Assembly: GCA_004376375.1 (NCBI GenBank)
Contig: SOJX01000015.1
Coordinates: 2,324-66,323 of the forward strand
DNA: 64,000 bases
Reading direction: 5' to 3'
Source: Planctomycetota bacterium
GTDB lineage: Bacteria; Planctomycetota; E44-bin39
The position numbers and the translations under genes are program-made. This document shows positions 4,915 through 50,632 of the stretch, piece after piece. The notes beneath the pieces were generated by a model that did not search any database, was not told the origin of the DNA, and was given only the letters and a program-made list of their open reading frames with translations. Position 1 is the stretch's first letter. Each line of letters starts with the position of its first letter.

Positions 4915-4927
4915 AATATGTTTAGCG

Positions 4928-6170: not shown

Positions 6171-6244
6171 TAGGTGATAGGTGATAAGTGATAGGTGATA
6201 GGTGATTTGTTAGAAATCGAAAATCGTAAATCGTAAATCGAAAA
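6167..6244. repeat. Two adjacent word arrays: (GTGATAG)n then (AAATCGn)n
   Basis: gtgataggtgataggtgataagtgataggtgataggtgat, then gaaatcgaaaatcgtaaatcgtaaatcgaaaa. The gene's TGA stop (6168-6170) lies inside the first unit. Confidence 0.9.
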
Positions 6245-6298
6245 CTTGTTCGGAAACATACACCACTGGAGAGGTGTATAAATAAATAGAGGTGACAG

Positions 6299-34174: not shown

Positions 34175-34251
34175 AAGGTTGAAAAGTTCGAAGGTTCAAA
34201 AGTTCAAAAGTTATAACCTTCGAACCTTCAAACCTTTGAACCTTTGAACTT
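34175..34251. repeat. Near-inverted word arrays (AAGGTTCAAAAGTT.. / ..AACCTTTGAACCTT)
   Basis: aaggttgaaaagttcgaaggttcaaaagttcaaaagtt ataa ccttcgaaccttcaaacctttgaacctttgaactt. The two halves are roughly complementary. Confidence 0.85.
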
Positions 34252-34380
34252 GCTTCTGTGGTATTTCGTCTTAAGGTGAAAGCTGATAGCTTTTTCGCGT
34301 TCTCATCAAAACGCAGTCAACTTGAGCTATTTATATAGATGAAATCTGGCGCCGGAATCGTACGTTAAAATAAGAAAAAG

Positions 34381-34442
34381 TTTCGAGTTCCGAGTACCGA
34401 GTACCGAGTCAAGAAATCCGAAACTCGAAACTCGAAACTCGA
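34381..34442. repeat. Word arrays (GAGTACC / GAAACTC units)
   Basis: tttcgagttccgagtaccgagtaccgagtc aagaaatcc gaaactcgaaactcgaaactcga. Confidence 0.85.
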
Positions 34443-34976
34443 TACTTCTTTGTGTAAAAGTTTTGTAATATTTTGCGGAAAATTCCCACTTTTTTCGTCC
34501 CGATAAGGCCAACAAACACCCATTGCAGGCCAACAAACGGGTGCTAAAGTGCCGCAATCGGGTGGTATCAGTTGCGAAAGGACGTATACCGTCACTTTTT
34601 TGTGACAGTTTTTCTGGTTTTGTAACGCGGAAATTTTTCGGCATGATTTTTGTCGGGAATTAAAAGTTTAAAGTGTAATCTGAGTTTACATCAACTCTTC
34701 GGACTTTTGTCTTTCGGCTTTTGACTTTAAACATGATTTTCCGATTTTCGGTTGTCGATTGGAATGGAGGTTTGCAGGTGAGCAGGTTTGTAGGTTCGTA
34801 GAAAAGAATTATGAATTCAGAATTATGAGGATGAATTGTTAGCCGCGCCGCTTGCGGCGCGTTTTAAATTTTCGATTTTCGATTGCGGACTGATAAATGC
34901 TGATAGATTTCCCTTGCTTGAGAAAAAATAGAGAATTATAATCAATTGAATGATATCCTGCTGAAAGGAAGTAATC

Positions 34977-36320
34977 ATGATTGGCTTTATTATATTTATT
35001 GTTGTTGTAATGGGAATAGCTGGAGTCGTTTCATATTTTTATTTGCAGAAAAAGGAACAGGCAAGTATCAGGGAAATAAAGGACTACCTTATTAAGAGAA
35101 TTACGGATGGCAGGGAAATAAATTACAATCATGCCAGTAATCTTTTTCAAACATCCGAAAAAAAGATTTATAAGGCTGCGAAAAATGTTTTTACAGATTA
35201 TTACAGAAAATATATATCGGACGGCATCATCACAGATAAAGAAGAGAAAAACCTTGGAGTCCTAATTGAAAGGCTTGGATTGGACTCACGTGACGTTAAT
35301 ATGATTTATGACATAGAAGGAAAAAGCAAACTTCGAAATGTATTAAAGGAGAAGATAAAAGACGGTGAATTGGATGAAGGTGAAATTGCCGAGCTGGATA
35401 TGTTAAGGAAAGAACTTGGATTCTCTAAAGGGGAGGCAACAGATGCGTTAAGAAAAGACTTGAAGATATTTATGAAAGCTAAATTCAGTGAAGCTGCCGC
35501 TGATCTTGATATAACGGATGATGAGATCCTCGAAATTGATAATATTGCGGCCAAAATGGGAATCCCAGTTAGTGAAGCAAGGCAAGAATTGAAGAAGGAT
35601 GTAATTGGGGTTGTCAGGAAGCGAATCGCCTTTTGCTTTGAAGACCAAGAAATATATAAAGATGAAGCAGAAGACCTTTCAAAAATTATGAAGTTATTTG
35701 GAGTTTCAGGAAAGCAATTAGAAAAGTTCGGAAGTGATATCAGATATCTGCTAGATCTAACGAATATTAAGAAGGGAAATCTTCCGCGTGTATCCGCCTC
35801 AAGGATGCTTTCGGCCCATGAAGTATGTCATCTGGATTGCCAATGTATACACACTACATTGGGATATGCTACGGAAAACACTTATCGCGGTACATTGCTT
35901 GTCACTAACAAAAGAGTTCTTTTCGACAGCGCTGAAAGAGGTTTCGATTTCAAGTTGCAGAATATTCTAGATGTTTCTACGATCCGTAAAGATGTCTTTA
36001 TTAGCCTTAAGCGAATACTGGGAAATGGATTTTACCGAGTTAGCGACCAGGCCAGATTTGTCGCGATCATTCTTGGAGCATGTCTAAAGGCAAACTGGCA
36101 CAGGGGTTCAGGATTCTCTTCTGAAAGATCCAGACATATTCCTCAACACGTCAAAACAGAAGTTTGGTCAAGGGGTAACGGTGCCTGTGTTTATTGCGGC
36201 GCCAATGATTATCTTCATTTTGATCATATAATTCCATTTTCAAAAGGCGGCTCGAATACTGCCGAGAATATTCAAATTTTATGCGCAAAATGCAACCTTG
36301 AAAAAAGTGACAGAATTTGA
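34977..36320 (+). CDS. Membrane-anchored protein: four TerB-like helical repeats + bacterial PH-like domain + C-terminal HNH nuclease
   Basis: N-terminal TM. Repeats of about 45 aa (DGIITDKEEKNLGVLIERLGL, DGELDEGEIAELDMLRKELGF, DLDITDDEILEIDNIAAKMGI, DQEIYKDEAEDLSKIMKLFGV). GTLLVTNKRVLFDS (bPH-like). CVYCG..HFDHIIPFSKGGSNTAENIQILCAKCNLEKSD (HNH). AT-rich. Confidence 0.75.
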   Translation: MIGFIIFIVVVMGIAGVVSYFYLQKKEQASIREIKDYLIKRITDGREINYNHASNLFQTSEKKIYKAAKNVFTDYYRKYISDGIITDKEEKNLGVLIERLGLDSRDVNMIYDIEGKSKLRNVLKEKIKDGELDEGEIAELDMLRKELGFSKGEATDALRKDLKIFMKAKFSEAAADLDITDDEILEIDNIAAKMGIPVSEARQELKKDVIGVVRKRIAFCFEDQEIYKDEAEDLSKIMKLFGVSGKQLEKFGSDIRYLLDLTNIKKGNLPRVSASRMLSAHEVCHLDCQCIHTTLGYATENTYRGTLLVTNKRVLFDSAERGFDFKLQNILDVSTIRKDVFISLKRILGNGFYRVSDQARFVAIILGACLKANWHRGSGFSSERSRHIPQHVKTEVWSRGNGACVYCGANDYLHFDHIIPFSKGGSNTAENIQILCAKCNLEKSDRI

Positions 36321-36489
36321 GGCTATTCGGAATCAAACAATCGGAGAAAAATATAAAGAATATTTTGCCCGCTGGAATTGATGTGAGCAGGTTTTGATAA
36401 ATTGGTGAATGTCCCTGTTTATACAGAGATCCCTTAATAAACGTGTTGAGTTTATCGTTTGTATGTTAGTCGAGAGGAATCTGAATTAA

Positions 36490-37236
36490 ATGAAGCAGAG
36501 AATATACAGGTTGCTGGAATTACAGGAAGGCTTTTGGGGAAAGGCGATTCAGTGGTTCGTAACGGTTGCAATTCTTCTCAGCGCACTAACATTTATTTTG
36601 GAAACGGTGCCAAAATTTAAGGACTATAAATCCTTCTTTCGATGTTCTGAATTTGTTTTTATCGGGCTTTTTACTATTGAGTATTTGCTTCGGCTTTATT
36701 CTCAACCAAAACGGGCAAAATGGGCATTAACAAATCCTTTCGCTATTATTGATTTCTTCGCGATAGTTCCGTTTTATATCGAATTGCTGTTACCTTTTTT
36801 CGTAGATGCACGGATGCTCAGGTTGCTCAGATTAATCCGTGTTGTGGCTCGTATTCTGAGAGTCGGCAGGCATCGTGATACGATTGATGTGTTGGTTGGC
36901 GTAATTAGAAAGACATGGAAAGAGCTCACAACTGGCATAATATTAGCCGTTATCGTCGCCCTTATTGCTTCAACCGGTATTTATTACGCAGAATATGTAT
37001 TTATTGAGGATGATATAATCAGAAATGATAATTTTTCTGATATGGCAAAATGTCTTTGGTGGTCCGTTGTTACGCTTACGACTGTCGGTTATGGTGATGT
37101 ATATCCAACGACAATATTGGGGAAAATTTTTGCTACTTTTGTCATGCTTGGTGGGATTGCCATGATTGCATTGCCTTCCGGGCTAATTGCAGGCGCATTT
37201 ATTGAAGAAATCCGTGAGAGAAGTGGGAAAAGATAA
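36490..37236 (+). CDS. Voltage-sensor-containing K+ channel (Kv-like)
   Basis: S4-like RMLRLLRLIRVVARILRVGRHR and selectivity filter TLTTVGYGD. Confidence 0.85.
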   Translation: MKQRIYRLLELQEGFWGKAIQWFVTVAILLSALTFILETVPKFKDYKSFFRCSEFVFIGLFTIEYLLRLYSQPKRAKWALTNPFAIIDFFAIVPFYIELLLPFFVDARMLRLLRLIRVVARILRVGRHRDTIDVLVGVIRKTWKELTTGIILAVIVALIASTGIYYAEYVFIEDDIIRNDNFSDMAKCLWWSVVTLTTVGYGDVYPTTILGKIFATFVMLGGIAMIALPSGLIAGAFIEEIRERSGKR

Positions 37237-37292
37237 ATGAAAAACAGAGATAGTCACCTATTTTTCAGTCCCTGTTTTTCATCAACGCGGTT

Positions 37293-38138
37293 TTAAGAAT
37301 TATTAAGTTCCAATTTCACAGGTGTAGGCTCGGTTCCGGTGTTTTCATCAACATCCTTTTTTGTGCTTTTTCTTCGGCCGCGCCTTTTTTTCCTTCCCGC
37401 TTTCCCCTTTCGTTTGGCCTTGCCAACATTTTTTAAGGCTTTCTCTGCATTCTCACCCTCAACTATTTCTCTTTTCAAAACTTCCTGCTTTAGGACTTCC
37501 TTAATTTCTGAAATTTTTATTTTTATTCGCGGAGAGAGCTTCCGAACTTCGCGGCGGACAATATTCAAAATTGGATCGCTAATTAGTAAAGCCCCCAAGG
37601 TGAATTTATCCATTGCCTGGCGCTGCTCGTGATATTTTGAAAGAGTAGCTTTTTTCAGGCCATCACGAGTCAATGTATAAAGACGTTCGATATCGGATGA
37701 ATTTCGCTGGTTCAAGTCCAATATATCGAATTCGATAACAATTTCTTTATTTATGGGTTTTCCAAACGACAAACGGAATACTTTCCAGATTATCCCATTT
37801 GTTAAAATAACCCATTCTACTCCCTGATTTGCGCCATAATTTACTGCTTGCCGTATGTGCGACTCTTTAAGGTCGAGTCCGATAGCTTTTACTTCGATTA
37901 GAAATCTTAGCTTTCCATCAATTACAATCGCCAGATCAACGAATGTTCCCCGGATCGAATGTTCCGCCGTAATTTCGGAGTACTTGTCATAACCGAAAAG
38001 TTCTGCAAGCATATCAGTAATAATTCGTACCGTATCTGCTTCGTTAACATCCCTTGTCCGCGCTCCCTTGAGAATTATTTGAAAACTTTTCAATTTTATT
38101 GCTAAACGTTTGGATACCTTTTTTGGAATTCTCGCCAT
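37293..38138 (-). CDS. HsdR-N-terminal-like (PD-(D/E)xK fold) nuclease-domain protein with Lys/Arg-rich tail
   Basis: NEADTVRIITDMLAELFGYD..FVDLAIVIDGKLRFLIEVKAIG..VEWVILTNGIIWKVF resembles the type I restriction R-subunit N-terminal domain family. Confidence 0.65.
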   Translation of the reverse strand: MARIPKKVSKRLAIKLKSFQIILKGARTRDVNEADTVRIITDMLAELFGYDKYSEITAEHSIRGTFVDLAIVIDGKLRFLIEVKAIGLDLKESHIRQAVNYGANQGVEWVILTNGIIWKVFRLSFGKPINKEIVIEFDILDLNQRNSSDIERLYTLTRDGLKKATLSKYHEQRQAMDKFTLGALLISDPILNIVRREVRKLSPRIKIKISEIKEVLKQEVLKREIVEGENAEKALKNVGKAKRKGKAGRKKRRGRRKSTKKDVDENTGTEPTPVKLELNNS

Positions 38139-38284
38139 TGATTTTCTCCTTCAAGGTTGGCACATTAACAAGCAAATTCTATATTACGCTATTACTCTTT
38201 TCAAGATAAATACACCATGAATTGATGGGAAGGTTCCTAATATTAAATTGATTTTTGAGATTGCTTATTTTGTTCCGCCCTTAC

Positions 38285-38428
38285 GAATAAGTTGATAAGG
38301 TAACAAGGTAACAAGTTGATAAGGTAATAAGGGAACAAGGGAAGAAGGGATAAGAAGTACCGAGTACCGAGTACCGAGTACCGAATAAGGAAACAAGAAA
38401 ATAAGGGAATAAGGGAATAAGGCAATAA
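38285..38428. repeat. Long block of word arrays (GATAAGG/AACAAGG, GTACCGA x4, AATAAGG)
   Basis: Read directly. Followed by hairpins CCGCGCC-acaggat-GGCGCGG+CTAA (38436-38460) and GGCGAG-TAAA-CTCGTT+GGCTAA. Confidence 0.9.
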
Positions 38429-38541
38429 ACGAAGACCGCGCCACAGGATGGCGCGGCTAAATAAGAGACGCGGCGAGTAAACTCGTTGGCTAATTATCAT
38501 AATTCATACTTCATAATTTCTTATTCCCGTATCCCTTCTAT

Positions 38542-38862
38542 TTAGCCGGCGGCGGTTTTTTCGGCGAAGAGGATGAGGAGGCCGATTCGGAGCGCGATGA
38601 GGAGGACGATTACGAGGAATGCCTTTATCACCGAAAGGTCGTAGTAGTTGAAGAGTATTATTACCAGGACGAAGAGGCCGACCACGCTTCCGATGAGCGG
38701 CCAGAAGGCGGCCCCGAGGTGGACGAACGACCAGCCGATGGCTGCGAGCTTCTTGTTTTTCCTGTTGCCGCGGTCGATTACCCCGATTGAGAACCACAAC
38801 ATGGATGCGTTAAGCAGTATCGCAAGCGCGATCTGTATCAGGATGTGAACGGGTTTGGACAT
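38542..38862 (-). CDS. Small polytopic membrane protein, unknown function
   Basis: ATG 38862 after AGGAGA, giving MSKPVHILIQIALAILL. Three hydrophobic helices. The track's N-terminal extension is translated repeat DNA and is rejected. Confidence 0.5.
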   Translation of the reverse strand: MSKPVHILIQIALAILLNASMLWFSIGVIDRGNRKNKKLAAIGWSFVHLGAAFWPLIGSVVGLFVLVIILFNYYDLSVIKAFLVIVLLIALRIGLLILFAEKTAAG

Positions 38863-38931
38863 GGTTTGTTTTTTCTCCTGCAATGGCAATATAGTATGAG
38901 CAAATCTTATATGCAAGGTAAAATAATAGTG

Positions 38932-39064
38932 CCAAGTACCGGGTAAGGGATAAGGTAATAAGGGAACAAGGGAACAAGGGATAAGGGGTAAGGGATAAGG
39001 GAGAAGAAGTCCCGAGTCCCGGGCCATTTCAATTTACGATTTTCGATTGTCGATTTTCGAATAT
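38932..39064. repeat. Word arrays (GGGTAAGG/GGAACAAGG, then ATTTTCGATT units)
   Basis: Read directly. Confidence 0.85.
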
Positions 39065-39085
39065 TGCCGCGAGCGGCGGGGATTA

Positions 39086-39475
39086 TTATGACAATAACCA
39101 GAAGATGTATGCAGCCATGGGGAAGAAAAGTAGACTTAATACCTTTCCGTATTTTATTTTCTGAATAAAAAAGCCTGCAGCCGCGGTCAGTGGCATTACA
39201 CCGAAAGCGATTACTTTCGCCAACATCACCAGAATCTGCCCCAAAATTTCTCTTCCAAAAGGTTTGTGTTCCGTTGTCATAATAATCATAATCAATATTA
39301 CCAGCATGGATAAATAAAGATATGTATGTATTACGGATTCTTTCGTATAAAGCTCTTTTTCCCTTTCGGTTTTTTCGGAGCGGAGCAGAACAAAGGTCGT
39401 CCGGCCGGCATGGAGGAGCCATAAGGTAAGATAGATCAGGATAGGAGAGGTTGGTATTATAAATCTTATAATCAT
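39086..39475 (-). CDS. Polytopic membrane protein, unknown function (AT-rich)
   Basis: 129-aa ORF with about 4 hydrophobic helices. No motif recognised. Confidence 0.5.
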   Translation of the reverse strand: MIIRFIIPTSPILIYLTLWLLHAGRTTFVLLRSEKTEREKELYTKESVIHTYLYLSMLVILIMIIMTTEHKPFGREILGQILVMLAKVIAFGVMPLTAAAGFFIQKIKYGKVLSLLFFPMAAYIFWLLS

Positions 39476-39591
39476 TTATGTCTTATAATATAAATCAAGT
39501 GGGATTGTCACGCAATGGATTTTCCGCAGGGCTGTGGGTAAGAAATTATGAATTCAGAATTATGAATGAATCCTGGATTCCGGCCTGCCGG

Positions 39592-39716
39592 AAGAAGGGG
39601 TAAGGTAATAAGGGAAGAAGGGAAGAAGGGATAAGAAGTACCAAGAACCAAGTACCAAGTACCAAGAACCAAGTACCGAGTATCAAGTACCGAGTACCGG
39701 GTACCGGGTACCGGGC
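39592..39716. repeat. Word arrays (AAGGGAAG; AGTACCAAG/AGTACCGAG/GGTACCG)
   Basis: Read directly. Explains spurious ORF 39508-39759. Confidence 0.9.
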
Positions 39717-39867
39717 AGGCGCGGGGGTCCGCCCCTACATCCCGCATTCCAGAAGTCAAAGTTATTACATAAAATTGGAACCAATTCGCATCAGGCCGGG
39801 TATAATACAGAACAGGGTAAGATAATTACGGGATAGTGGATATACGGGCATCGAACTGGAGGGAATT

Positions 39868-40554
39868 ATGCCGGTTACTACGTTACGAAAAACTTTCCTG
39901 ATTATTACAGGTGTATGCCTGTTTGGTTTTCTTTCATCAGGCGGCTGTAAAAAAGAAGAAAAAGTCTATGTTCCCGTTTCAATCCAAGGTGGCTCAGCCT
40001 CGACACAGCCGGGCCGGGCATCCAATCCGTTGCCACCAAATTTGTCGCCTGACGTCCCGCTTACAATCCTGCTGGACTGGTCCGATACCGCAAATACGGA
40101 TAGATACGGGGTGCTTTTAACGACTGTTGACGGACCCCCGATTACCGCAGACGGTATGACGGACTCACAATGGCTGGCGACCGGGCTTTCCGGGAACGTC
40201 ACATACTACTGGCAGGTCTTCTCGGGTAATTCTGAAGGATCCAAGGCAGGCCCGGTATGGAGTTTCTTTACAAATCCAAACATGCCGGACCAGGTAGGCT
40301 TCGGCCTTCCCTGTGACGGAACCGAGAATATACCGGTTACCGTCCTGCTTGACTGGAATGCTGCAAACAAGGCAAGCAAATACAATCTGTATTTCGGCTC
40401 TGAACCAAATCCACCGCTGGTAGCTATTGACCTTACTGTTACGCAATGGCAGGCCACCAGTCTTGCCAACCTGACTGCTTATTACTGGCGCGTTGATTCT
40501 GTGAACAGTTACGGTGTAATCAAAGGCCCAGCCTGGAGATTTACTACTGAGTGA
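39868..40554 (+). CDS. Lipoprotein with two Fn3-like modules
   Basis: GGAGG RBS. Lipobox-like LSSGGC. Two copies of ..P.P....V.....L.W......Y.....YYW.V.S.N..G...GP.W.F.T. Confidence 0.7.
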   Translation: MPVTTLRKTFLIITGVCLFGFLSSGGCKKEEKVYVPVSIQGGSASTQPGRASNPLPPNLSPDVPLTILLDWSDTANTDRYGVLLTTVDGPPITADGMTDSQWLATGLSGNVTYYWQVFSGNSEGSKAGPVWSFFTNPNMPDQVGFGLPCDGTENIPVTVLLDWNAANKASKYNLYFGSEPNPPLVAIDLTVTQWQATSLANLTAYYWRVDSVNSYGVIKGPAWRFTTE

Positions 40555-40677
40555 CGAGTAACGAGTGACGAGTAACGAGTAACGAGTAACGAGTACCGAG
40601 TAACGAGTAACGAGTAACGAGTAACGAGTATCGAGTATCGAGTACCGAGTAACGAGTAACGAGAAACGAGAAACGAG
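40551..40677. repeat. Heptamer array (GAGTAAC/GAGTGAC/GAGTACC), about 18 units, starting on the TGA stop
   Basis: Read directly. Explains spurious ORF 40509-40721. Confidence 0.95.
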
Positions 40678-40685
40678 TTAAATAG

Positions 40686-40710
40686 AACCGCCGGCCTGGG
40701 GCCGGCGGTT
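40686..40710. terminator. 11-bp hairpin AACCGCCGGCC-tgg-GGCCGGCGGTT between convergent genes
   Basis: Read directly. Only weak T-runs on either side. Confidence 0.5.
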
Positions 40711-40742
40711 TCATCCTTCATCCTTCAGACTTCATCCTTTCT

Positions 40743-43091
40743 TTAGTTCGTTACCGTCAGCAGTATCGGGTCTGCGCGGCCGGGGCCGACCTCGGGAGCA
40801 TAGTATTCATATGCCTTCGAAACGGGGGTCTGGACCTTCAGCGGGCAGGTCGGCGTGAGCATGTAATTTATCTCGAACGAATCGCTTGCATCGAGCACAT
40901 TGCGGTAAATGTTCAGCTGCTGGCCGGCGATTTCGTAGCGGTCGATAACTCCCTGGTATCTTGCGAGTTCCAGCTCGTCGGCCGAGAGCGCGAAGCCGGG
41001 CGGGATGCCGATCTCGGCGACGACCGTGTTGGCGCCGCGGCCATTGGTGCGGGTGTTTGCGATATTCACCGTGACCGCAACGGTTTCGTCCATGGTAAGG
41101 CTTACTTTCGAGTAGTCGAGCGCGATAGTGATGTCGCCCGGCGGCGGGGGCGTGCGCCCCCTGTAATAACGCCATACTATCTGCGCCATCGGGTTCCCGG
41201 TTCCGGCGAACTGGACGGTCACGTTGTTTGCGCCGACCTGCAGGTAATCGCGGCACGAGACGAACCTGACCACGTCGGCGTCGGCGGGCGTTATCGTTAC
41301 GGCCGGGAGGGTCGTGGCGTTCGCGGTTATCGTGACGGTGCCATCGGCGTTGTCGGAGCCCGCGCTTCCCTGGGCCATGATGAGCGTGCGCAGGGCGTAG
41401 ACGGTTGACTGCGTGGTCATCCAGTTGCCGAGGGCGTCCTTGTGCGCGATAAGGTAGTTGATCGCGCCCTGCACGAGGTCGCCGTGGACGCCCGCGCGCA
41501 TCATCGTCGTCGCGATGCGGCCGGTGAGCTCGAAATTCAGCGACGCGCCGTACGAGTACATGACGCCGTAAGTACCCGAGGCCGCCTGCCAGTAGTTCTC
41601 GTCGCCGCTGGTCTGAACGGCTGCGGCGAGATCGTTGAGGAGCGAGATCCCGTCGGCGTCGTTCTTGTTTATAAGGATAAGCGCTTCGGCGCAGAGCGCT
41701 TTATCGTACAGGCTCAAGGCGGAAGCCAGATTATTCTTGATGTACTGCCGGGCCAGGTCGAGCTTGGGCCCGGTGTAGCCCGAATATGCAATCGCGCCCG
41801 CGATGTAAGCGGTCGAATACAGGTCGTTCGAATAGCTCGGGAGGTAGTTCGTACGGTCCGCGGACCAGGAGCCGTCATAGTCCTGACTCGAGAAGAGGAA
41901 ATTCTGCATGCGCGGTATAAGCGTCTCATCCACGTATGCGACGCGCGCCATGTCGGTGAAAAGGGTGAGACCGAACGTCGTGAGGTTCTTGTTGGCCGGC
42001 GCGCTCCCGTACCACGAAAAGCCGCCGCTCTTCGTGACTTCGTAAGCCATAAGCATCTGGTAGCCGATACTTATCTTGTGGGTGGCAAGCTGCTTGAACT
42101 GAGGGGTGACCGCCCCGGTCACCGTGAGGTAGTCCAGCGCCATCACGTTGGGGTACGTGATGCTGGACACCTGCTCGAATCACCCGTGCGGGCAGCCGAG
42201 GAGGCTTTCGATCCCCTCGACCACCTGGGTCACGTAGCCGCTGTACAGCTTGACGTAACAGTCGTCGGCGCCTACGATGTGGTCGACCGGAATCGTCCAG
42301 TCCGCCGCGACCTCGGGATTCATGCTGCCGCTTGCCGAGCCGGCGACCGGCTCGCCGTCGGGCAGGACGCGGATGGTGCGGCTTATCGCGTCGTTCATCG
42401 TCTGCCCGTAGGCGTAGACGGTGAATGCCTGCGTGCCGACGTCCTCGGCGCGGATGGGGAAGTACACGGCCCTGACTTCGTTGGGCGTGAGGTCGAGCGT
42501 CTGGGTGAGGCCGCCCAGCGGCGTGAACCATGCGGAGTTCGAAAGTACGACCTGGACCTGCTGGGCCGTCGGCAGGTAGTTGTAAATCACGCAGGGGACG
42601 TGCATCTCGTCGTTCTGCGTGAGCTGGATGGGCAGGTTGATGTCGACGAAGAATTCCTGGAAACAGCGGACCGCGTCGGTGACCGAGCCGAGCCTGCCGT
42701 CGAGCGCGCTGGCCATCGCGGTCAGGCGCCAGTCCGTGATGGAGTCGGCCATGTCGAGCGAGATGGAGGCGTGCCCGCCGGCGTCGGTTATTAGCGACGG
42801 TTCGTTAAAAAGCGTCTCGGGAAACCATGTTCTCACGCGGACGTTGGGGTCGGGGGATCCTGAGCCCGTATCTCCGCCGCCGGTGCCCGTTCCGGTGCCG
42901 GTGCCGGTGCCGGCGGCGGTCATGGTCGCGCCGCCGGTTCCGCCGCCGCCCATGTTCGTGCCCCCGCCCCCGCCCCCGGCAGGAGAATACAGCACAGATC
43001 TTTTGGAATCGCCTCCGCAGCCGTCGGCGCTCCAGAAAATCAGGGCCAGCAACACTCCCAGTAAAAGCGCCCTTGTAGAAGAAGAATGCAT
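40743..43091 (-). CDS. Alpha-2-macroglobulin-like C-terminal half (A2M domain + thioester domain + C-terminal domain) with one in-frame TGA at the thioester Cys position
   Basis: Track ORFs 42180-43091 and 40743-42170 share a frame and are separated only by TGA 42180-42182. VRVRTWFPETLFNEP opens the A2M domain. ..LLGCPHG[TGA]FEQVSSITYPNVMALDYL.. is the thioester segment. Own AAGGAG RBS and signal peptide MHSSSTRALLLGVLLALIFWSADGC. Confidence 0.7.
42132..42168 (-). promoter_or_regulatory. SECIS-like hairpin starting 11 nt downstream of the in-frame UGA
   Basis: Minus strand: GUCCAG-CAUCACGU / loop ACCCCA / ACGUGAUG-(GCG bulge)-CUGGAC. That is 14 bp in total, with the loop starting 25 nt after the UGA. 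Confidence 0.5.
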
Positions 43092-43166
43092 GGTTTTATC
43101 TCCTTTAGAGCTATCAGCAATCAGCTGTCAGCTATCAGCAATTATCTGACCGAATCCCGAAAACGC

Positions 43167-43182
43167 GGCGAGCAAGCTCGCC
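43167..43182 (-). terminator. TTAGCGG-anchored hairpin (GGCGAG-CTTG-CTCGCC on the minus strand) followed by GCGTTTTC
   Basis: Lies between the two A2M halves, downstream of the N-half. Confidence 0.5.
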
Positions 43183-43196
43183 CGCTAAACAAAGAC

Positions 43197-43300
43197 TCTT
43201 AACTTCAAAACTTTTTAACTTCAAAACTTCTTAACTTCAAAACTTCTTAACTTCAAAACTTCTTAACTTCAGCACTTCTTAACTTCAGCACTTCAGCACT
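43197..43300. repeat. Word array (minus strand GTGCTGAAG / GTTAAGAAGTTTTGAA units) beginning at the stop of gene 43300-45939
   Basis: Read directly. Same words occur after genes ending at 58624 and 61163. Confidence 0.9.
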
Positions 43301-45939
43301 TATTTTGTTATCACGATATCGTCGTCGGTGTCGAATTTTTCATCCGGTCCGCCGGACTTGAAGCTCAGGGTGCCGGAGCCGTCGGCGGTTATGATGTAGC
43401 ATTTCCCCCATGGGTCGATCGCCAATGCCGGGTCCCAGCCGTACCAGGAGAAGGCGGTGTATCCGACTTCGGGCCATGTGTTGAGGCCGCGCATCACCAA
43501 CTGGTCTATCAGGTCTTCGACTTCGGCCCGGACTATATCGGTCATTACCACGGCAACGGAATCACCAAGCGACGTGGATATTGTATCGGTGCTTCCGACA
43601 ATCGAGAAGTAGAGGCGGGCGGCGTTCTGCGTTGCCGCGTCGGGGTCGACCTTGACGAACTCGTCGTACGAGTACCCGATGGCCGGCAGCGTTATTCCCC
43701 GCTCCCAGTCGAAATTGAAGTATTCCTCGGCCGCGCCTGCCTGGAAGTCGCTCACGTGGTATACCGCCTCGTCGACGATCGTGACGCCGAGCGCGGCCTG
43801 CACGGGCGCGCCGCCGCGGTCGGACACGTCGAGCGCGATCTGGGCGTGCTCGCCCGGTACGTACTCGGACTTGTCGGGCGTTACGCTTATGACGAGGTCG
43901 TCGGCTCCCGCGATGAAGACCTGGCGGGAATCGGTGACGAGCATGCCGTCGGGCGCGATGAAGTTTCCCACGATGTAGCAGTCGCCCGCGTGCTCCTGTG
44001 TGAGCGTGAAGTCGACGACGCCTGTCAGGGCGAGGTCGACCGTTTTCTCGGCCAGCACGCGCGAGCGGGAGCAGAGCTCGACCTTCACCGACGCCGCGGC
44101 GTCGGATGCGATGACGTCGGCCTGCAGCGTTTCACCGACCTTGTAAAGCGCGGCGTTCGGGCGGACAAAGAGGAAGTTGCTGCTGCCCGCGGTCCCGGTC
44201 GTAAACTGGTCGGAAACGAAACCGCCACCGGGGAGCGCGGCGTTCACGGTCAGCTCCAGCACGAGGCCCGAACCGAGGGCCGTGCAGTCGGCGACCTCGG
44301 GATGGATGGTTATTTCCGCGAAGCCGGCCGCGTCGGTCTGCCCCATGCCGAGGCTGTTGCTTCCGGCGAGGGCTTCGATTACCGCGTTTTCTATCGGCCT
44401 GCCCGCCGGATCGGCCACCGCGACGTAAAGCAGGTTGTCGGCGCCCAGCCGGGCGCGGCCTCCTTCGGGCGCGGCGAGGATTATCGCTTCTCCCCCCGCG
44501 ACGGGGATGATGAACTCTTTTTCGATAACCTGGTCGGCCGTGTCCGTCGCGATGACGGCGACTGAAATACAGGCCTCGCCGTTTGCGAGCTGCACGGGGT
44601 CGAAGGAGTTCGGGACCTGGAAGTTGAACGCGTATACGCCGCTCGGGTTCGTGGTCCCCAGGAAATTGGCAAAGGTCTGGGCGTCGTCGCCGGAGCCGGT
44701 CCTGACGTTGATGTCAAGAGTACCGCCGTCGATATCCTTGCCGAAAAAGTACTGGAGGTGGACGGAGGCGGTCGCGGTTTCGCCGGGGATATAGTAATCC
44801 CGGTCCGACGTGAAATTTACCTTGAATTTCGGGAGGACGTAGAAGGCGACCAGAACGGATTTCTCGATAATCGTTCCGCCCACGTTGGCGGAGAGCTTGA
44901 AATTACCGGAACAGAGCTCGGGCGCAAGCACGAACGAGGCGTTTGCGATGCCGTAGGAGTTCGTGGCGGCGATTTCCTTGAAGACCTTGTTGTCCTTCGC
45001 GTCGTAGATTTCGAGGGTCGTCTCTTCGTCCGCGACGGGCACGCAGCCCGGCTCGGTCAGGGCGAGCGCGCGCAGGTGGATGGTCTGCCCCGGCTGGTAT
45101 TGCGGCTTGTCGGTCGTAAGAAGCACTTTCGTGCCGCCGCCGGCCGTGATTTCCCGTTCAATAGTTTCATTGACACCGCCGCCGGAGAGCGTGCACCTGC
45201 ATGTCATCGTATCGGGCGCGTCGGACGGAATATCCATCGTACCGATGAAGCGGCCGAAAGAGTCCGTGCTGCCGTCGGCGGACGCGACGGTGGAGCCGTC
45301 GGCGATGAGTCTTATCGTGACGGCCGCGGCTTCGAGCGGTGCGCATGATTCCGGGTCGACGGCCAGTACCCTGTACGTGGCGGCGCTTCCGCGGAACACG
45401 GTTTTCGGTCCGAGGAGCCGGACGTAATCGAGGTTGTCGCCCGAGATAAGGGCTTTCTGCCCTTTCATCACGTGTGTGCCGATCTGAATCCGCCAGTAAA
45501 TAAAATGTCCGGCTTTTTTGGCGGTTGACGCGTCCGCCACCAGCGTGAGAATATTAACGACGGCGTAGGTCTCGCCGGGCTGGAGGTTGACGTTTATAAC
45601 GCCTGCGCCGGCCGGGTATTTGGTTTCCGCGTCCCTGACCTCGGCGTACAGGCTTGCGAGCTTGCTTTTGCCGTCGTTGTTGGTGACCGGAATGCCGACG
45701 CTGACGCAGGCCGTGCTGAACGAGATATCCATGCCGGCTTCGTCCACGACGACGTTCTCCGCCGCCTCGGTCGCCTTGTCGGCCGTGTTATTGGGGTATT
45801 GTATGGTCCATGACCATGAGGGACCCGGGATGGTGATTACGACGGGGTTTCGCGTGTCATCGCCGCAGCCGCGGCCGCCGAGAATTAACAGGGATGTGAC
45901 TGCAAACCCGAGGATCAGGAAAAGTGCAGAACGGCTCAT
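43300..45939 (-). CDS. Alpha-2-macroglobulin-like N-terminal half (MG domains) with pseudopilin-like C-terminal tail
   Basis: Signal peptide MSRSALFLILGFAVTSLLILGGRGC. MG-domain hallmarks TDKPQYQPGQTIHLRALAL, VLPKFKVNF, VTPDKSEYVPGEHAQIALDV. Tail DPWGKCYIITADGSGTLSFKSGGPDEKFDTDDDIVI resembles the GspG C-terminus. Confidence 0.85.
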   Translation of the reverse strand: MSRSALFLILGFAVTSLLILGGRGCGDDTRNPVVITIPGPSWSWTIQYPNNTADKATEAAENVVVDEAGMDISFSTACVSVGIPVTNNDGKSKLASLYAEVRDAETKYPAGAGVINVNLQPGETYAVVNILTLVADASTAKKAGHFIYWRIQIGTHVMKGQKALISGDNLDYVRLLGPKTVFRGSAATYRVLAVDPESCAPLEAAAVTIRLIADGSTVASADGSTDSFGRFIGTMDIPSDAPDTMTCRCTLSGGGVNETIEREITAGGGTKVLLTTDKPQYQPGQTIHLRALALTEPGCVPVADEETTLEIYDAKDNKVFKEIAATNSYGIANASFVLAPELCSGNFKLSANVGGTIIEKSVLVAFYVLPKFKVNFTSDRDYYIPGETATASVHLQYFFGKDIDGGTLDINVRTGSGDDAQTFANFLGTTNPSGVYAFNFQVPNSFDPVQLANGEACISVAVIATDTADQVIEKEFIIPVAGGEAIILAAPEGGRARLGADNLLYVAVADPAGRPIENAVIEALAGSNSLGMGQTDAAGFAEITIHPEVADCTALGSGLVLELTVNAALPGGGFVSDQFTTGTAGSSNFLFVRPNAALYKVGETLQADVIASDAAASVKVELCSRSRVLAEKTVDLALTGVVDFTLTQEHAGDCYIVGNFIAPDGMLVTDSRQVFIAGADDLVISVTPDKSEYVPGEHAQIALDVSDRGGAPVQAALGVTIVDEAVYHVSDFQAGAAEEYFNFDWERGITLPAIGYSYDEFVKVDPDAATQNAARLYFSIVGSTDTISTSLGDSVAVVMTDIVRAEVEDLIDQLVMRGLNTWPEVGYTAFSWYGWDPALAIDPWGKCYIITADGSGTLSFKSGGPDEKFDTDDDIVITK

Positions 45940-46006
45940 GGGATTTATTCCTTATCAAGGAAAACGGGTGTCCGTAGAAACTTTCAAATGGATTATCTAA
46001 ATATCT

Positions 46007-46034
46007 ATTATATAAAAAACGGAATAAGTTTCAA
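46007..46034 (-). promoter_or_regulatory. Sigma70-like promoter: TTGAAA, 16 nt, TATAAT (minus strand)
   Basis: Forward-strand TTTCAA at 46029-46034 and ATTATA at 46007-46012. About 65 nt upstream of the A2M N-half start. Confidence 0.45.
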
Positions 46035-46197
46035 GTTTCTTTTATTATCGGTCGTTGTCCGGCGCAACCGCGTCCTTATCTGTATGAAAACTTACGAGTT
46101 ATATCTATGCATCCAATTGTAAAAGTTGCGTCACACATGTGGGGAAGGTAATAAGGTAACAAGGGAATAAGGGAATAAGGAAACAAGGAAATAATAA

Positions 46198-46290
46198 TTA
46201 GCCGGCGAGTTTACTCGCCGCGTCTTCGTTTAGCCGGCGAGCTTGCTCGCCGCGTTTTCCCGGCAAAACCCGCGCCGCTGGGCGGCGCGG
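46198..46290. repeat. Three consecutive GC hairpins, two of them TTAGCCGGCGAG-type
   Basis: GGCGAG-TTTA-CTCGCC at 46204-46219. GGCGAG-CTTG-CTCGCC at 46235-46250. CCGCGCCGC-tgg-GCGGCGCGG at 46270-46290. Confidence 0.85.
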
Positions 46291-46472
46291 CATTAAATTT
46301 GCTTGCGGCAGTTCGCAGACGGAAGTAAAATACTGGAAAATTACCCAACTGCGGTTGTGGGGAATTCTATGCGGGAAATCTCGGTTAAGGATATCCTGAA
46401 CACGAACTCCCCGGAAGGCGGCTCGGCTGTCTCTGGAATAAGTTTATAACCTTGCTGGACCGAGGACGAATC

Positions 46473-48368
46473 ATGATTGAGTTTGTAAGGAGAATCGGTG
46501 AGGGCGAAGCAAAATCATTTTATATAAACTTGACTGATAATATTACGGGGCCAAAGAAGGAAAAATATGGAAAGCATTTAAACATAGAACACGGTGAGAA
46601 AATAGTGGTGATAGATGGTAGTGGGCGGAAATATGAAATAGTAAAACACCATGGGAATCAATTGTGGGGGCCAAGATTACATAATTGGTTTATGCAAAAT
46701 GGCGTTTCAGCCGGCACGGTTATCCAGATTGGATTTAATCCAATGGAGACTATTGAAAGCTGTCCGGTTATCCATTTGCAACCAATGGAAACTATTGAGG
46801 ATTGTCCGGTTGTCCATTCGCGACCAATGGAAAAAGCTGGGTTAGTATTGGAGAAGGACGAATCAGATTCCCCAACAATGAGTCAGGTTGCACAGTCTTC
46901 GGAGCAAGTAACATCAAAACATCGCCCATCTGTGGACACGAAAGGGGAACCGGAAATGAATTCTCTTGAAAAGGATGATAAGAGAAATAAAATATTGCAT
47001 CAACATAACGGTATGTGCTTCGTTTGCGAAGAAGAAATTATGGATGGCGAAAATTGGGATATAGACCATATAAAGGCTAGGCATGGGCCAGAAATGGGGT
47101 CGGATGATATATCAAATTTTGCGCCGGCGCATTCGAGGTGTAATAAACGGAAGGGAATTAAGCCGTTGCTTACGATAAGAAATCAATTCAGAGTCGAGAA
47201 AAATTTCAATGAGGATTTTGCAAAGATACTACCCGAATATGAAAAAGCGGATGTAGTAATTGACAAGAGCAATATACAGGTTTTATTTAATGGTGTTAGA
47301 ATTCCCCTTTACCATTGCAGATGCAGCAATGTTTACTTTTTTTACCATACAATACCGACAAAACACATCAAGAAGGATGCTGTGATACAACCGCGGCCCT
47401 TGTATAAGGATAAACTTACTCGGCTTGGAGAGCACTTGCAGAACAACTTTCAACTATCGCCGTCTGTGGGCAGGCTGGAAGATAATGAAGTGCTGATATT
47501 TGATGGGCAACATAAAATTGCCGCCCAAATCCTGTGGAATGGGCTTGAAGAAGTTGAGTGTAAAGTGTTGGTTGGGACTGATAGAAGAATGATTGATAAT
47601 GTAATAGAACAGGGACATGGGCCACTTAGGCAAATGTCATTCAAATCAAGCGAACTGGGGCGAAAGCTAAAAGCACAATTTGGAGAACATATTGAAATGT
47701 GGAAGAAAAACAATCCGGGTAAGGACCCGAGCGAAAAGGACATATTCTTCGAGCAATTACGTTATAGTAAAAGCCAGCGAAGAAAAGCTATTATCCGTCT
47801 GCGCGCAGAAAGCGTTAAAGATATTTCTACAATAAAAGATTATATATCTAAAAGGAAAGATAAACGGTTTCCGCTCACGGACTTGATGTTCGAGAAAATA
47901 ATTAAGGCGTTCGCGAATATTGAGCCATTAGAAGTCCCAATGGAATCAGAAAATGATCTTAGAAGCGAAGAAGAAAGAAATTTGGCTTTTCTCTTAGACA
48001 GGATATTCGATTTCAGTCTAAAAGACAATTGGCCCCACGATGGTAGATTCATTACCGAACAGCATAAGGTGGTTAGGAATCAATATCGCGAGCAACCATT
48101 TGAAGTTTGGATATATCTATTAAATGAAGCGCTTCATTATTTGTGCGGAAAAGCTTCTGACGAATCAGTTTGCTATTCCAAAGAATGGGATGACGTACTA
48201 AAGAGCAAAATATCAAGAGCCGTAAAATTCTTATTTGAGCATTCTGCGTGGCTCGCTCCAGAAATCGAACCGTTGTTTTATTCTAAAAAGAAGGAGGACA
48301 TTTTAAATAAATTATCTAGTTATGATTTAACGCATAACAGTATCCATAATGCGGCAGTCAAAGTATAA
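46473..48368 (+). CDS. HNH nuclease fused to a DGQH(K/R) ParB/DndB-like domain (defence-like)
   Basis: ATG 46473 after GAGGA. HNH: CFVCEEEI..WDIDHIKARHG..NFAPAHSRCNKRKG. Later IQPRPLYKD..VLIFDGQHKIAAQILWNG (DGQHR/DGQQR-type motif). Visibly AT-rich compared with its flanks. Confidence 0.7.
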   Translation: MIEFVRRIGEGEAKSFYINLTDNITGPKKEKYGKHLNIEHGEKIVVIDGSGRKYEIVKHHGNQLWGPRLHNWFMQNGVSAGTVIQIGFNPMETIESCPVIHLQPMETIEDCPVVHSRPMEKAGLVLEKDESDSPTMSQVAQSSEQVTSKHRPSVDTKGEPEMNSLEKDDKRNKILHQHNGMCFVCEEEIMDGENWDIDHIKARHGPEMGSDDISNFAPAHSRCNKRKGIKPLLTIRNQFRVEKNFNEDFAKILPEYEKADVVIDKSNIQVLFNGVRIPLYHCRCSNVYFFYHTIPTKHIKKDAVIQPRPLYKDKLTRLGEHLQNNFQLSPSVGRLEDNEVLIFDGQHKIAAQILWNGLEEVECKVLVGTDRRMIDNVIEQGHGPLRQMSFKSSELGRKLKAQFGEHIEMWKKNNPGKDPSEKDIFFEQLRYSKSQRRKAIIRLRAESVKDISTIKDYISKRKDKRFPLTDLMFEKIIKAFANIEPLEVPMESENDLRSEEERNLAFLLDRIFDFSLKDNWPHDGRFITEQHKVVRNQYREQPFEVWIYLLNEALHYLCGKASDESVCYSKEWDDVLKSKISRAVKFLFEHSAWLAPEIEPLFYSKKKEDILNKLSSYDLTHNSIHNAAVKV

Positions 48369-48554
48369 ATTGTTCTGGAGGGGGATTTCCTGAATTTTGC
48401 TGAAGTAAAGGTGGTGACTTGGGTAGCGTTTGAGTAATCGCAATCACGGGCAAGATGCCCGTGCCACAACGCGCGCCGCAAGCGGCGCGGCTAAATAAAA
48501 CAAAAATAATATGACCCGGGACACGGGACTTGTTTCTTTACATCAGATTTTTTC

Positions 48555-48582
48555 TTGCCGCGTTGCGGTGAATTGCTATAAT
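48555..48582 (+). promoter_or_regulatory. Sigma70-like promoter: TTGCCG, 16 nt, (TGc)TATAAT
   Basis: -35 at 48555-48560, an extended -10 TG at 48574-48575, TATAAT at 48577-48582. About 75 nt upstream of top6B. Confidence 0.5.
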
Positions 48583-48658
48583 AACGCTGTCTGAGAGGGG
48601 GCCGTCCGTGAGTATAAACCCCTATTAGATATGAAATCTCAGCACCCGGGGTGATATT

Positions 48659-50632
48659 ATGGCCAAAGCGAAGCGAAAGAAAAAGGCGAAACCCGCGAAG
48701 AAAAAGCCTGCGAAGAAACGGGCCAAAGCGAAAAAGAAAAAGCCGGCAAAGCGCAAGCCCGCGAAGAAGAAAGCGAAAAAGGGCGCAAAGCGCGGCAAAA
48801 AGAAACCGGCTGCAAAGCCACGGCGCAGGAAAAAGAAAGACAGGCTTACGCCGCGGCTGCCGTTCGTCGAGGAGCGGCCCGCAGTTTCCGCGCCGAAGAG
48901 CAGGAGCCGGAAGCAGGTAAAGGCGGCGCGCGACGCGCAGCCCGCTCCCGAGCCCGTGCCGGAGCCGAAAATTCCGAAGAGCAGGAAAAAGGGACGCATT
49001 ACCGCCGACGTCCTCGCCCGCAGGCAGCGCGAGATTTCCGTTTCAGAATTTTTCAGAAAGAACCGCCACCTCCTCGGGTTCGACAACCCGACCAAGGCGC
49101 TCCTTACGACGATAAAGGAAGCGGTCGACAACGCCATCGACGCGTGCGAGGAGGCGCGCATCTTGCCGACCATCGACGTGACCGTCCGGCCGACGGCTGA
49201 GAACCGTTTCCGCATCGCGGTGACGGACAACGGGCCGGGCATCGTGAAGGCGCAGATACCGAAGATTTTCGGCAAGCTGCTTTACGGCTCGAAGTTCCAT
49301 TCGTTCAAGATGTCGCGCGGGCAGCAGGGGATCGGCATCTCCGCGGCCGGGATGTACGGCCAGATGACGACCGGCAAGCCCACGCTTATCGTTTCAAAGA
49401 CCGGTCGCAAACGCCCCGCCAACGTTTTCGAGGTCGTCGTAAATGCAAAGAAAAACAAGCCCGACGTTATAAGCGAGGACACGACCGAGTGGGACGTGCC
49501 GCACGGGACGCGCGTGGAGATCGAGCTCGAGGGGCGCTACACGAAGGGCTCGCGCTCGGTCGACGATTACCTGAAGGCGACCGCCATCGCCAACCCGCAC
49601 TGCGAGCTGACCTATACGAACCCGCAGGGCGAGCGGTTCCGTTTCAAGCGCGCGACCGACGAGCTGCCGCCGGAGCCGCGCGAGATAAAACCGCATCCCT
49701 ACGGCGTCGAGCTCGGCGTGCTCATCGAGATGCTGCACGCGACCAGGGCGCGTAACATGTTCGGCTTTTTCCGCAGAGAGTTTTCCCGCGTATCCCCGAA
49801 AATCGCCCGGGAAATTCTCGAGAAGGCGAAAATTTCCGAGAAAGCGTCGCCGAAACGAATCGCCCGGCAGGAAGCGGACGCGCTCTCAAAAGCTATCCCG
49901 CAAGTCAAGATAATGTCGCCGCCGACGGACTGCATTACCCCGATCGGGGAGGAGTTGATTCTCGCGGGCCTGAAAAAGGAGATCGAAGCCGAGTTCTACA
50001 CGGCGGTGACGCGCAAACCGTCGGTCTACCGCGGCAACCCGTTCCAGATCGAAGTCGGCCTCGCGTGGGGCCGGACTAAAGAGGAACGAGCCGGGAAAGA
50101 CAAAACGCAGGCCGACGACGGGATCATCGGCAGCAAGAACGGGACCAGGAACGGCGGCGGTTCGCTTGCGAAACTGCTGCGGTTCGCGAACCGCGTTCCG
50201 CTGCAGTACCAGCAGTCGGGGTGCGTGATAACGAAGACGATAACGAAGACCGACTGGCGCGGTTACAAGGTGCCGCAGTCGCGCGGCGCGCTGCCGTCGG
50301 GCCCGCTCGTGATTCTCGTTCACATGGCGAGCGTGTGGGTGCCGTTCACTTCCGAGTCGAAGGAGGCAATCGCGTCGTATCCCGAGATCGAGAAAGAAGT
50401 CCGCCTCGGCCTGCGCGAGTGCGGGCGGAGACTCGCGGTCCACCTCTCGCGCAAGCGCAGGGAAGCCGAGGTCGCGAGGAAGCGCAGTCATATCGAGCTG
50501 TACATCCCGCACATCGGCGTCGCGCTCAAACAGATACTCGACCTCGACGACCGCAAGGAAAAGAAGATAGTTAGCAACCTGACGGAGATGCTGTACCGCT
50601 CGCACCTGGACGCGAAGAAGGGAGCATCATAA
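48659..50632 (+). CDS. top6B: DNA topoisomerase VI subunit B with about 90-aa Lys/Ala/Pro-rich N-terminal tail
   Basis: Bergerat-fold boxes EAVDNAIDA, VTDNGPGI and SRGQQGIGIS. N-terminus MAKAKRKKKAKPAKKKPAKKRAKAKKKKPAKRKPAKKKAKK. Confidence 0.9.
   Translation: MAKAKRKKKAKPAKKKPAKKRAKAKKKKPAKRKPAKKKAKKGAKRGKKKPAAKPRRRKKKDRLTPRLPFVEERPAVSAPKSRSRKQVKAARDAQPAPEPVPEPKIPKSRKKGRITADVLARRQREISVSEFFRKNRHLLGFDNPTKALLTTIKEAVDNAIDACEEARILPTIDVTVRPTAENRFRIAVTDNGPGIVKAQIPKIFGKLLYGSKFHSFKMSRGQQGIGISAAGMYGQMTTGKPTLIVSKTGRKRPANVFEVVVNAKKNKPDVISEDTTEWDVPHGTRVEIELEGRYTKGSRSVDDYLKATAIANPHCELTYTNPQGERFRFKRATDELPPEPREIKPHPYGVELGVLIEMLHATRARNMFGFFRREFSRVSPKIAREILEKAKISEKASPKRIARQEADALSKAIPQVKIMSPPTDCITPIGEELILAGLKKEIEAEFYTAVTRKPSVYRGNPFQIEVGLAWGRTKEERAGKDKTQADDGIIGSKNGTRNGGGSLAKLLRFANRVPLQYQQSGCVITKTITKTDWRGYKVPQSRGALPSGPLVILVHMASVWVPFTSESKEAIASYPEIEKEVRLGLRECGRRLAVHLSRKRREAEVARKRSHIELYIPHIGVALKQILDLDDRKEKKIVSNLTEMLYRSHLDAKKGAS

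Follow-up and report, generated by a model that had tools for sequence, protein, structure and literature searches.

A 64,000-nucleotide (nt) stretch of contig SOJX01000015.1 from the Planctomycetota assembly GCA_004376375.1, hereafter the window, carries on its minus strand a gene for an alpha-2-macroglobulin (A2M)-like protein whose frame is broken at a single codon, a UGA standing in the column of the reactive thioester cysteine. This UGA is conserved across homologues, the frames on either side of it are intact, and the RNA after it is structured in a way that is tied to the UGA forms of the family. An initial annotation of the window had proposed that the codon specifies selenocysteine (Sec), and that reading is supported by the Sec/Cys pair at the column, by the conservation of the UGA and by the RNA structure particular to UGA forms. 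We put at roughly 0.8 the probability that UGA encodes Sec in this A2M family and that the gene is functional; for the activity of the window's own copy, our confidence is somewhat lower than for the family.

The gene reads from an ATG at 43091 to a TAA at 40745-40743 on the minus strand, and the TGA at 42182-42180 is the sole interruption between two open reading frames (ORFs), 43091-42180 and 42170-40743. As had been stated in the initial annotation, and as minus-strand translation bears out, the two ORFs lie in one frame and are parted by this TGA alone. The read-through frame contains no further stops or frameshifts, and the gene and its parts are laid out as follows.

40743..43091, minus strand: read-through coding sequence of 782 codons, the C-terminal half of a split A2M-like protein (translation, Pfam).
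43017..43091, minus strand: signal peptide ending in a lipobox-like ...FWSADGC (read by eye from the translation).
42543..42806, minus strand: Pfam A2M (PF00207) macroglobulin (MG) domain, residues 96-183 (E = 4.6e-19).
41382..42233, minus strand: thioester domain (TED), Pfam TED_complement, residues 287-570, holding the putative U-F-E-Q (E = 5.1e-33).
42180..42182, minus strand: in-frame UGA at the thioester Cys column, candidate Sec codon, residue 304.
42171..42173, minus strand: CAG codon, the thioester partner Gln of the putative U-F-E-Q, kept (translation, PDB alignment).
40791..41033, minus strand: Pfam A2M_recep (receptor-binding or MG8-like) domain, residues 687-767 (E = 4.1e-08).

The minus-strand context of the interruption is VVEGIESLLGCPHG-TGA(42182-42180)-FEQVSSITYPNVMALDYL, with the codons GTC GAG GGG ATC GAA AGC CTC CTC GGC TGC CCG CAC GGG TGA TTC GAG CAG GTG TCC around it and the amino acids VEGIESLLGCPHG-stop-FEQVSS. 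The 782-residue product comprises a signal peptide with its Cys, a Gly/Thr-rich linker, an MG domain, the TED and a receptor-binding-like domain, and the lipobox-like end of the signal peptide suggests a membrane-tethered extracytoplasmic lipoprotein. When PDB chains were searched with phmmer, the best matches were A2ML1 (1.5e-33), CD109 (1.1e-31) and A2M (1.8e-28), with TEP1 and C3/C4 also among them. Judged by its domain content (MG domains, TED and receptor-binding domain), the protein belongs to the A2M/TEP superfamily. The phmmer alignments place the UGA column on the thioester Cys (query gcphgCfeq; qmpsgCgeq in A2ML1, rmpygCgeq in CD109), in agreement with the earlier proposal that the stop takes the place of the Cys of CxEQ while the partner Gln is kept. 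The Glu-Gln of the motif is present and aligned and UGA occupies the Cys position; the motif would read U-F-E-Q only if UGA is decoded as Sec. TGA is the stop of 10 of the 36 long ORFs in the window; it is an ordinary stop there, as had been remarked, and UGA is thus not generally reassigned. The identical TGA is present in GCA_030588815.1 (locus L004), an assembly that may not be independent.

Homologues that span the junction bear out the predicted exchange at this column. Ten such proteins, found in a first protein search, read G-C-FEQ. Six homologues of ~1,140 residues, from Anaerolineae and other metagenomes and 45-48% identical to the N-terminal part, all stop at ...LPHG or ...VPYG, one residue ahead of the Cys column. 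The DNA behind three of these six reads TGA and then in-frame FEQ or LEQ; two of the downstream frames reach a stop after 474 and 482 codons, and the third remains open for 468 codons to the contig end. The column is therefore Cys in the GCFEQ homologues and UGA in the G-UGA-FEQ and G-UGA-LEQ forms.

We scanned one genome per species, 185,579 species in all, for the pattern GGN-TGA-YTN-GAR-CAR-N12-ACN-TAY-CCN-AAY, and obtained 92 matching loci in 81 assemblies, where ~0.5 would be expected by our own estimate. The upstream frame is open in 92/92 loci, over lengths from hundreds to >1,800 codons, and the downstream frames that reach their own stop are almost all 441-508 codons long (one has 342). 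The carriers, all of them metagenome-assembled genomes (MAGs), are mainly labelled Chloroflexota (Anaerolineae, Caldilineae, Thermoflexales and Chloroflexia) and Planctomycetota (Planctomycetia, Gemmatales and one Kuenenia, locus L031), with single bins labelled Eisenbacteria, Abditibacteriales, Vulcanimicrobiota and Marinacidobacterales. In nine assemblies the gene is present as two or three diverged paralogues, all of them with UGA. The multi-copy MAGs are CAZGKV01 (L006/L036/L069), JACPWG01 (L022/L028/L095) and seven more with two loci each; paralogues within one MAG often have different downstream hairpin solutions. Across the UGA forms, the TED regions share a mean pairwise identity of 49%, with a minimum of 24%. 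Because a frame of ~470 codons has been kept open behind the UGA despite such wide divergence, these loci are incompatible with pseudogenes.

A metagenome scan left the codon free as TAA, TAG, TAY, TGA, TGG or TGY. Among the 120 matches listed, at least 74 have TGC, at least 41 have TGT and at least 5 have TGA, and none has TAA, TAG, TAY or TGG at the Cys column; the TGA genes among these matches are intact in 5/5 cases. A rough neighbour-joining tree of 171 TEDs calls for ~9 switches between U and C; 41 Chloroflexota-type sequences group in one large clade that is entirely U, and 24 Planctomycetota sequences in another. Selenoprotein families are typically recognised by just this, a catalytic residue that is Cys in some members and UGA in others, with scattered exchange between the two. 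No restart codon is conserved after the UGA, the nearest ATG, GTG or TTG falling anywhere from codon +4 to codon +30.

Bacterial Sec insertion sequence (bSECIS) elements are described by rules that call for a loop of 3-9 nt with a G in its first two positions, a stem of 4-16 base pairs (bp), a distance of 16-37 nt from the UGA, and a minimum free energy (MFE) of -7.5 kcal/mol or lower (PMC13188914). Two hairpins follow the UGA in the window.

42127..42172, minus strand: hairpin 1, 18 bp in three segments, core 42168-42132.
42105..42123, minus strand: hairpin 2, GGUGACCG-GGG-CGGUCACC, 8 bp, -13.6 kcal/mol (folding, covariation).

Hairpin 1 had been described in the initial annotation as a SECIS-like stem of 14 bp with the loop ACCCCA 25 nt after the UGA; folding reproduces it and extends it to 18 bp. 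It consists of a 5' strand at 42168-42155, the loop at 42154-42149 and a 3' strand at 42148-42132 with a 3-nt bulge. Its SECIS-like character holds for stem, loop size, spacing (25 nt) and energy and fails for the loop G, the loop containing none. Hairpin 2 presents a G-first triloop at 42115-42113, 64 nt after the UGA, and conforms to the rules in loop, stem, G and energy; its 64-nt distance does not conform to the 16-37 range. Because the loop G is absent from hairpin 1 and present in hairpin 2, hairpin 1 is probably not the whole SECIS, and hairpin 2, with its GGG triloop, is the better candidate for the apical hairpin that binds SelB. With hairpin 1 folded, about 7 + 3 unpaired nt lie between the UGA and the base of hairpin 2, a gap that resembles the 10-nt spacing of the Chloroflexota-type forms, and hairpin 1 may act as a spacer. 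Hairpin 1 of the class B Planctomycetota, indexed by hand, differs in register from hairpin 1 of the window. No Rfam family matches the UGA region or the window as a whole.

Across the family, structure after this codon is stronger in UGA forms than in Cys forms. Over the 60 nt that follow the codon, the mean MFE is -16.3 kcal/mol in UGA forms and -11.0 in Cys forms (Mann-Whitney p = 5e-12). The window and the Planctomycetota-type group average -21.2 (z = -2.3), compared with -11.8 (z = -0.4) for high-GC Cys forms (p = 3e-8). In the window itself the value is -26.9 kcal/mol (z = -4.1 against dinucleotide shuffles), a stability attained by 0/112 Cys forms, the Cys minimum being -19.0; its three nearest Cys homologues give -8.9, -9.0 and -4.3. 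Among UGA forms 55% conform to the bSECIS rules, among Cys forms 3%. In the interval +12 to +100, a perfect hairpin of -6 kcal/mol or lower is present in 49/60 UGA forms of the Chloroflexota type, 34/37 of the remaining UGA forms and 5/114 Cys forms, and one with a G-first triloop in 49/60, 20/37 and 1/114, respectively.

The solution adopted by the Chloroflexota-type forms is UGA-N10-GUACGUC-GG(C/U)-GACGUAC, a 7-bp stem with a GGC or GGU loop at 17-nt spacing, which satisfies all bSECIS rules and is present in 41/41 members of the protein-tree clade. Synonymous variation at codons 4-8 is zero in the Chloroflexota-type set delimited by its hairpin sequence, a figure that is partly circular for that reason; the 41/41 of the protein-tree clade is the fairer measure. 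Thr codon 8 is ACG in 76/98 UGA forms and in 22/112 Cys forms. In the window and the Planctomycetota forms, a long hairpin is followed by a short GC-rich one with a G-containing loop of 3-4 nt, and the loop of this second hairpin starts 58-77 nt after the UGA.

Covariation is limited because the hairpins lie in coding sequence. In the register of hairpin 2 that groups the window with L022, L056, L050 and L031, five inner pairs are paired in all sequences and 3/5 of them switch between GC and CG (score 0.387 vs 0.121; 0/500 shuffles as high). The +77 hairpin group shows changes from A-U to G-C. Hairpin 1 of the Planctomycetia has 97.9% of cells paired and two pairs altered on both sides (again 0/500 shuffles as high), one of these two-sided changes coming at the price of a Gly-to-Ser replacement. 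Covariation is thus found in the hairpin 2 register and in Planctomycetia hairpin 1; hairpin 1 of the window has no homologous partner with which to compare it.

From these features we infer how Sec would be inserted, which hairpin would bind SelB, and what bond would form and to what benefit. RNA structure after the UGA would recruit SelB·GTP·Sec-tRNASec, leading to Sec insertion in place of termination; in the window, the recruiting structure would be the long hairpin at 42172-42127 and then the GC-rich hairpin at 42123-42105 with its G-first triloop. Sec304, inserted co-translationally, would replace the thioester Cys in the folded TED and would attack the Gln307 side chain (U-F-E-Q), in the manner of the Cys of A2M and C3, to give an internal gamma-glutamyl selenoester. 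On activation or exposure, this selenoester would acylate a target nucleophile, resulting in covalent coupling at a faster rate than in the Cys forms. Peptide selenoesters undergo acyl transfer ~10-14 times faster than comparable thioesters (PMC11600164), and a selective advantage is therefore plausible.

We hold a larger claim more tentatively, at a little under even odds: that these proteins contain the first natural genetically encoded selenoester, a Sec-Gln surface warhead, and that the Planctomycetota-type members use a two-part SECIS. In such an element, the long spacer hairpin would bring the G-triloop hairpin, 58-77 nt downstream and beyond the 16-37 nt rule, into range.

The N-terminal half of the protein is encoded by a separate gene upstream, beyond a spacer that contains tandem repeats.

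43300..45939, minus strand: upstream gene, 879 residues, N-terminal half of A2M (Pfam MG2, MG3 and bait-region domain A2M_BRD).
43109..43301, no strand: spacer between the A2M half-genes, 208 nt, with tandem repeats.

In the upstream ORF, MG2 is matched at 1.2e-20, and MG3 and A2M_BRD are matched as well. Its signal peptide ends in ...GGRGC and that of the UGA gene in ...SADGC, and each A2M half is probably a lipoprotein anchored to a membrane outside the cytoplasm. The two half-genes are fully intact. The two-gene layout is shared by a Cys-form relative, L221 (genes at 3774-5777 and 6001-8571), and because that relative has the same layout, the split is a settled architecture rather than a lesion. 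The bait region does not lie inside a single long polypeptide, A2M_BRD being situated on the separate upstream ORF; this split bears on protease trapping of the ECAM/A2M kind, not on superfamily membership.

The Anaerolineae-type UGA forms encode both halves in a single ORF, with a stretch between them that by eye is long and hydrophobic. In P0011-P0016 and at L001 (5970-9398), L002 (10001-13387) and L003 (392-3949), this stretch measures ~250 residues between the bait-region and MG7-like domains and resembles, again by eye, several transmembrane helices. The Anaerolineae-type forms would be A2Ms with an internal polytopic membrane segment at the usual place of the bait region. Because a membrane anchor replaces the classical bait region in both layouts, the protease-trap mechanism of A2M and ECAM is not to be assumed.

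The C-terminal ~60 residues of the 879-residue ORF (43303-43480, minus strand) end in ...DPWGKCYIITADGSGTLSFKSGGPDEKFDTDDDIVITK, and this tail resembles by eye a type II secretion pseudopilin-G domain; the homologue P0007 has a faint Pfam T2SSG match at the corresponding place, just ahead of its A2M domain. We see no reason why an MG-domain protein should have a pseudopilin-like tail. The repeats in the spacer are a 16-nt unit (TCTTAACTTCAAAACT and a variant) over 43197-43301 and a 7-nt unit, AGCTATC, in ~4 copies over 43109-43139; phase variation and regulation are possibilities.

Several points weigh against Sec decoding and must be set beside the evidence above. No tRNA-Sec was detected by ARAGORN, and no selA, selB or selD by tblastn with the E. 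coli proteins, in the window and ~100 fetched loci, which cover so little of each genome that these negatives are uninformative. All carriers are MAGs, and the evidence comes from sequence. The scan patterns demanded FEQ/LEQ and TYPN, which partly builds in the conservation of those residues. The window copy is a lone lineage, with a TED at most 38% identical to that of any other form (the best protein matches of the gene are at most 41% identical), and a Planctomycetota relative, L219, whose topoisomerase VI (topo VI) B subunit is 85% identical, is without the whole island in which the gene lies. Neither window hairpin satisfies all four bSECIS rules, and no column-homologous partner for window hairpin 1 was found among relatives. 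As for the chemistry, no selenoester has to our knowledge been observed in a natural protein; the bond might be too prone to hydrolysis, or Sec might have a different function.

The alternative that survives best, although we consider it unlikely, is that UGA in these genes is a site of programmed termination, yielding an MG-domain fragment and perhaps a re-initiated TED fragment, or of read-through without Sec. The hairpins would then serve termination-reinitiation or mRNA stability or, for read-through, a near-cognate or suppressor tRNA would insert Trp, Cys or Gly. Such an account sits well with the two separate products annotated by gene callers, with the occurrence of the A2M halves as separate genes in the clade, with the incomplete fit of the window hairpins to the canonical bSECIS model, and with a Sec machinery that is presumed in the carriers. 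It is hard to reconcile with a break that coincides in every lineage with the codon of the catalytic Cys and that is TGA throughout, with no TAA or TAG (in the metagenomes, among the matches listed). Termination with a restart fits poorly, since the Gln and FEQ…TYPN are kept right after the UGA, where a restart at +4 to +30 would lose them, and no start codon is conserved downstream; read-through without Sec keeps some probability. The Chloroflexota-type forms satisfy every bSECIS rule.

Less probable again is that the selenoprotein family is genuine and the window copy dead, carried on a horizontally acquired island into a host unable to decode Sec and truncated there at ...PHG. That the copy may be dead in this host, which may lack the capacity for Sec, is the most serious local caveat to Sec decoding. 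The A2M pair (GC 0.60-0.63) does lie inside an insertion of roughly 14.5 kb relative to L219, the low-GC flanks (0.38-0.42) do carry HNH endonuclease genes, and the 64-kb window contains no Sec genes. On the other side, both half-genes are intact with no other stop or frameshift, the unusually strong hairpins have been preserved, and the lineage, being deeply diverged, has had time to decay but shows no sign of it. Some Planctomycetes, Gemmata and Isosphaera among them, are documented to possess the complete set of Sec genes (PMC4807772).

The last alternative, raised in the initial annotation, is a pseudogene made by a TGY-to-TGA nonsense mutation or an error of sequencing or assembly, and although a single transversion turns TGC or TGT into TGA and the source is a metagenome assembly, it is effectively excluded by the TGA of 92 + 5 intact, highly diverged loci, multi-copy genomes included, by UGA-linked RNA structure with covariation, by the lack of additional lesions in the window gene, and by the TGA of the second assembly, GCA_030588815.1, within the limit already given on its independence.

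The insertion lies between a HEAT-repeat gene and topo VI B, an interval of 14.5 kb in the window and 1.9 kb in L219; relative to L219, the island extends over ~34200-48600 of the window. Its GC content is a mosaic of 0.38-0.46 at 34-40 kb, 0.57-0.63 over the A2M genes and 0.40-0.42 at 46-48.5 kb. The two HNH-endonuclease ORFs (34977-36320 and 46452-48368) have weak matches to the HNH part of IscB and Cas9d models, and the island also holds an HSDR_N-domain ORF and a potassium-channel-like ORF. The topo VI subunits B and A are encoded at 48659-50632 (plus strand) and 51113-52363 (plus strand), and their best named homologues are from Planctomycetota (Phycisphaerales, Sedimentisphaerales and Brocadiia), which assigns the window to that phylum; topo VI is a type IIB enzyme known mainly from archaea. 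A 670-residue ORF at 27654-29666 (minus strand) fuses a radical SAM/SPASM domain to a class I methyltransferase domain.

If UGA is decoded as Sec in this family, selenium would stand at the acyl-bearing Cys position of a warhead that complement C3, A2M and insect TEPs use for covalent attachment. The result would be a naturally evolved selenoester, which should donate its acyl group more readily than a thioester does, and the question "why selenium instead of sulfur?" would become testable in a non-redox setting within one protein. The family would also be a widespread addition to the prokaryotic selenoproteome, with 81 species genomes under at least six phylum-level labels, and would supply dozens of natural SECIS variants, including two-hairpin forms that fall outside the spacing rule of prediction programs. 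At present each of these genes comes out of annotation pipelines as two proteins, named "hypothetical" or "MG2 domain", and the NCBI label of the fragments is "MG2 domain-containing protein". The architecture indicated is itself unusual for an A2M, with two lipoproteins in one layout or a membrane segment inside one chain in the other.

The earlier statement that no Sec-containing thioester protein has been described agrees with what we found in catalogues, curated models and the literature. Neither A2M nor thioester proteins appear among the 119 prokaryotic selenoprotein families and subfamilies of a 2026 catalogue (PMC13188914). Full-text literature searches and selenoproteome papers with text supplements yielded no description of a Sec-containing A2M or TEP, and no A2M selenoprotein is mentioned in the accessible text of the deep-Sep paper and its supplements or in the main text of BSepDB. 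No model of NCBIfam release 20 matches the protein, and because this search came back empty, NCBIfam holds no curated selenoprotein model for it. What we describe is most likely an apparently undescribed Sec/Cys selenoprotein family, one that combines a selenoprotein with an A2M thioester protein.

Among known systems, the bacterial A2Ms (E. coli ECAM/YfhM, the YfaS type and Salmonella A2M) share with it the MG domains, bait-region domain, TED and receptor-binding-like domain, the position of the Cys-x-Glu-Gln motif in the TED, and lipoprotein anchoring outside the cytoplasm; the nearest Cys homologues carry the JGI name 'YfaS (alpha-2-macroglobulin family)'. It differs from them in that the codon of the reactive Cys is UGA, in that the protein is made from two lipoprotein genes, or from a membrane-interrupted single ORF in the Anaerolineae relatives, and in its motif, which is (U/C)FEQ. 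The motif of ECAM is CLEQ. The eukaryotic proteins A2M, A2ML1, CD109, C3/C4 and TEP1 can be aligned with it over the MG7-like domain, the TED and the receptor-binding domain, with the UGA on their thioester Cys; identity to them is low, and they are single chains, whereas the protein here is split. In full-text literature searches, every described member of this group either relies on Cys or lacks the thioester through loss, and Sec is used by none.

SelB/SECIS-dependent selenoproteins such as FdhA likewise have a UGA aligned to Cys, a stem-loop downstream and patchy switching between Sec and Cys. In nearly all known families, however, Sec is redox-active or a metal ligand, whereas here it would carry an acyl group; and the G-loop hairpin of the window and of the Planctomycetota forms stands 58-77 nt away, behind a long first hairpin, in departure from the bSECIS model. 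Synthetic peptide selenoesters, as used in native chemical ligation, offer the closest likeness in chemistry, an acyl-selenium bond that serves as an activated acyl donor. Those compounds are laboratory reagents, whereas the bond predicted here from the sequence would be intramolecular and genetically encoded.

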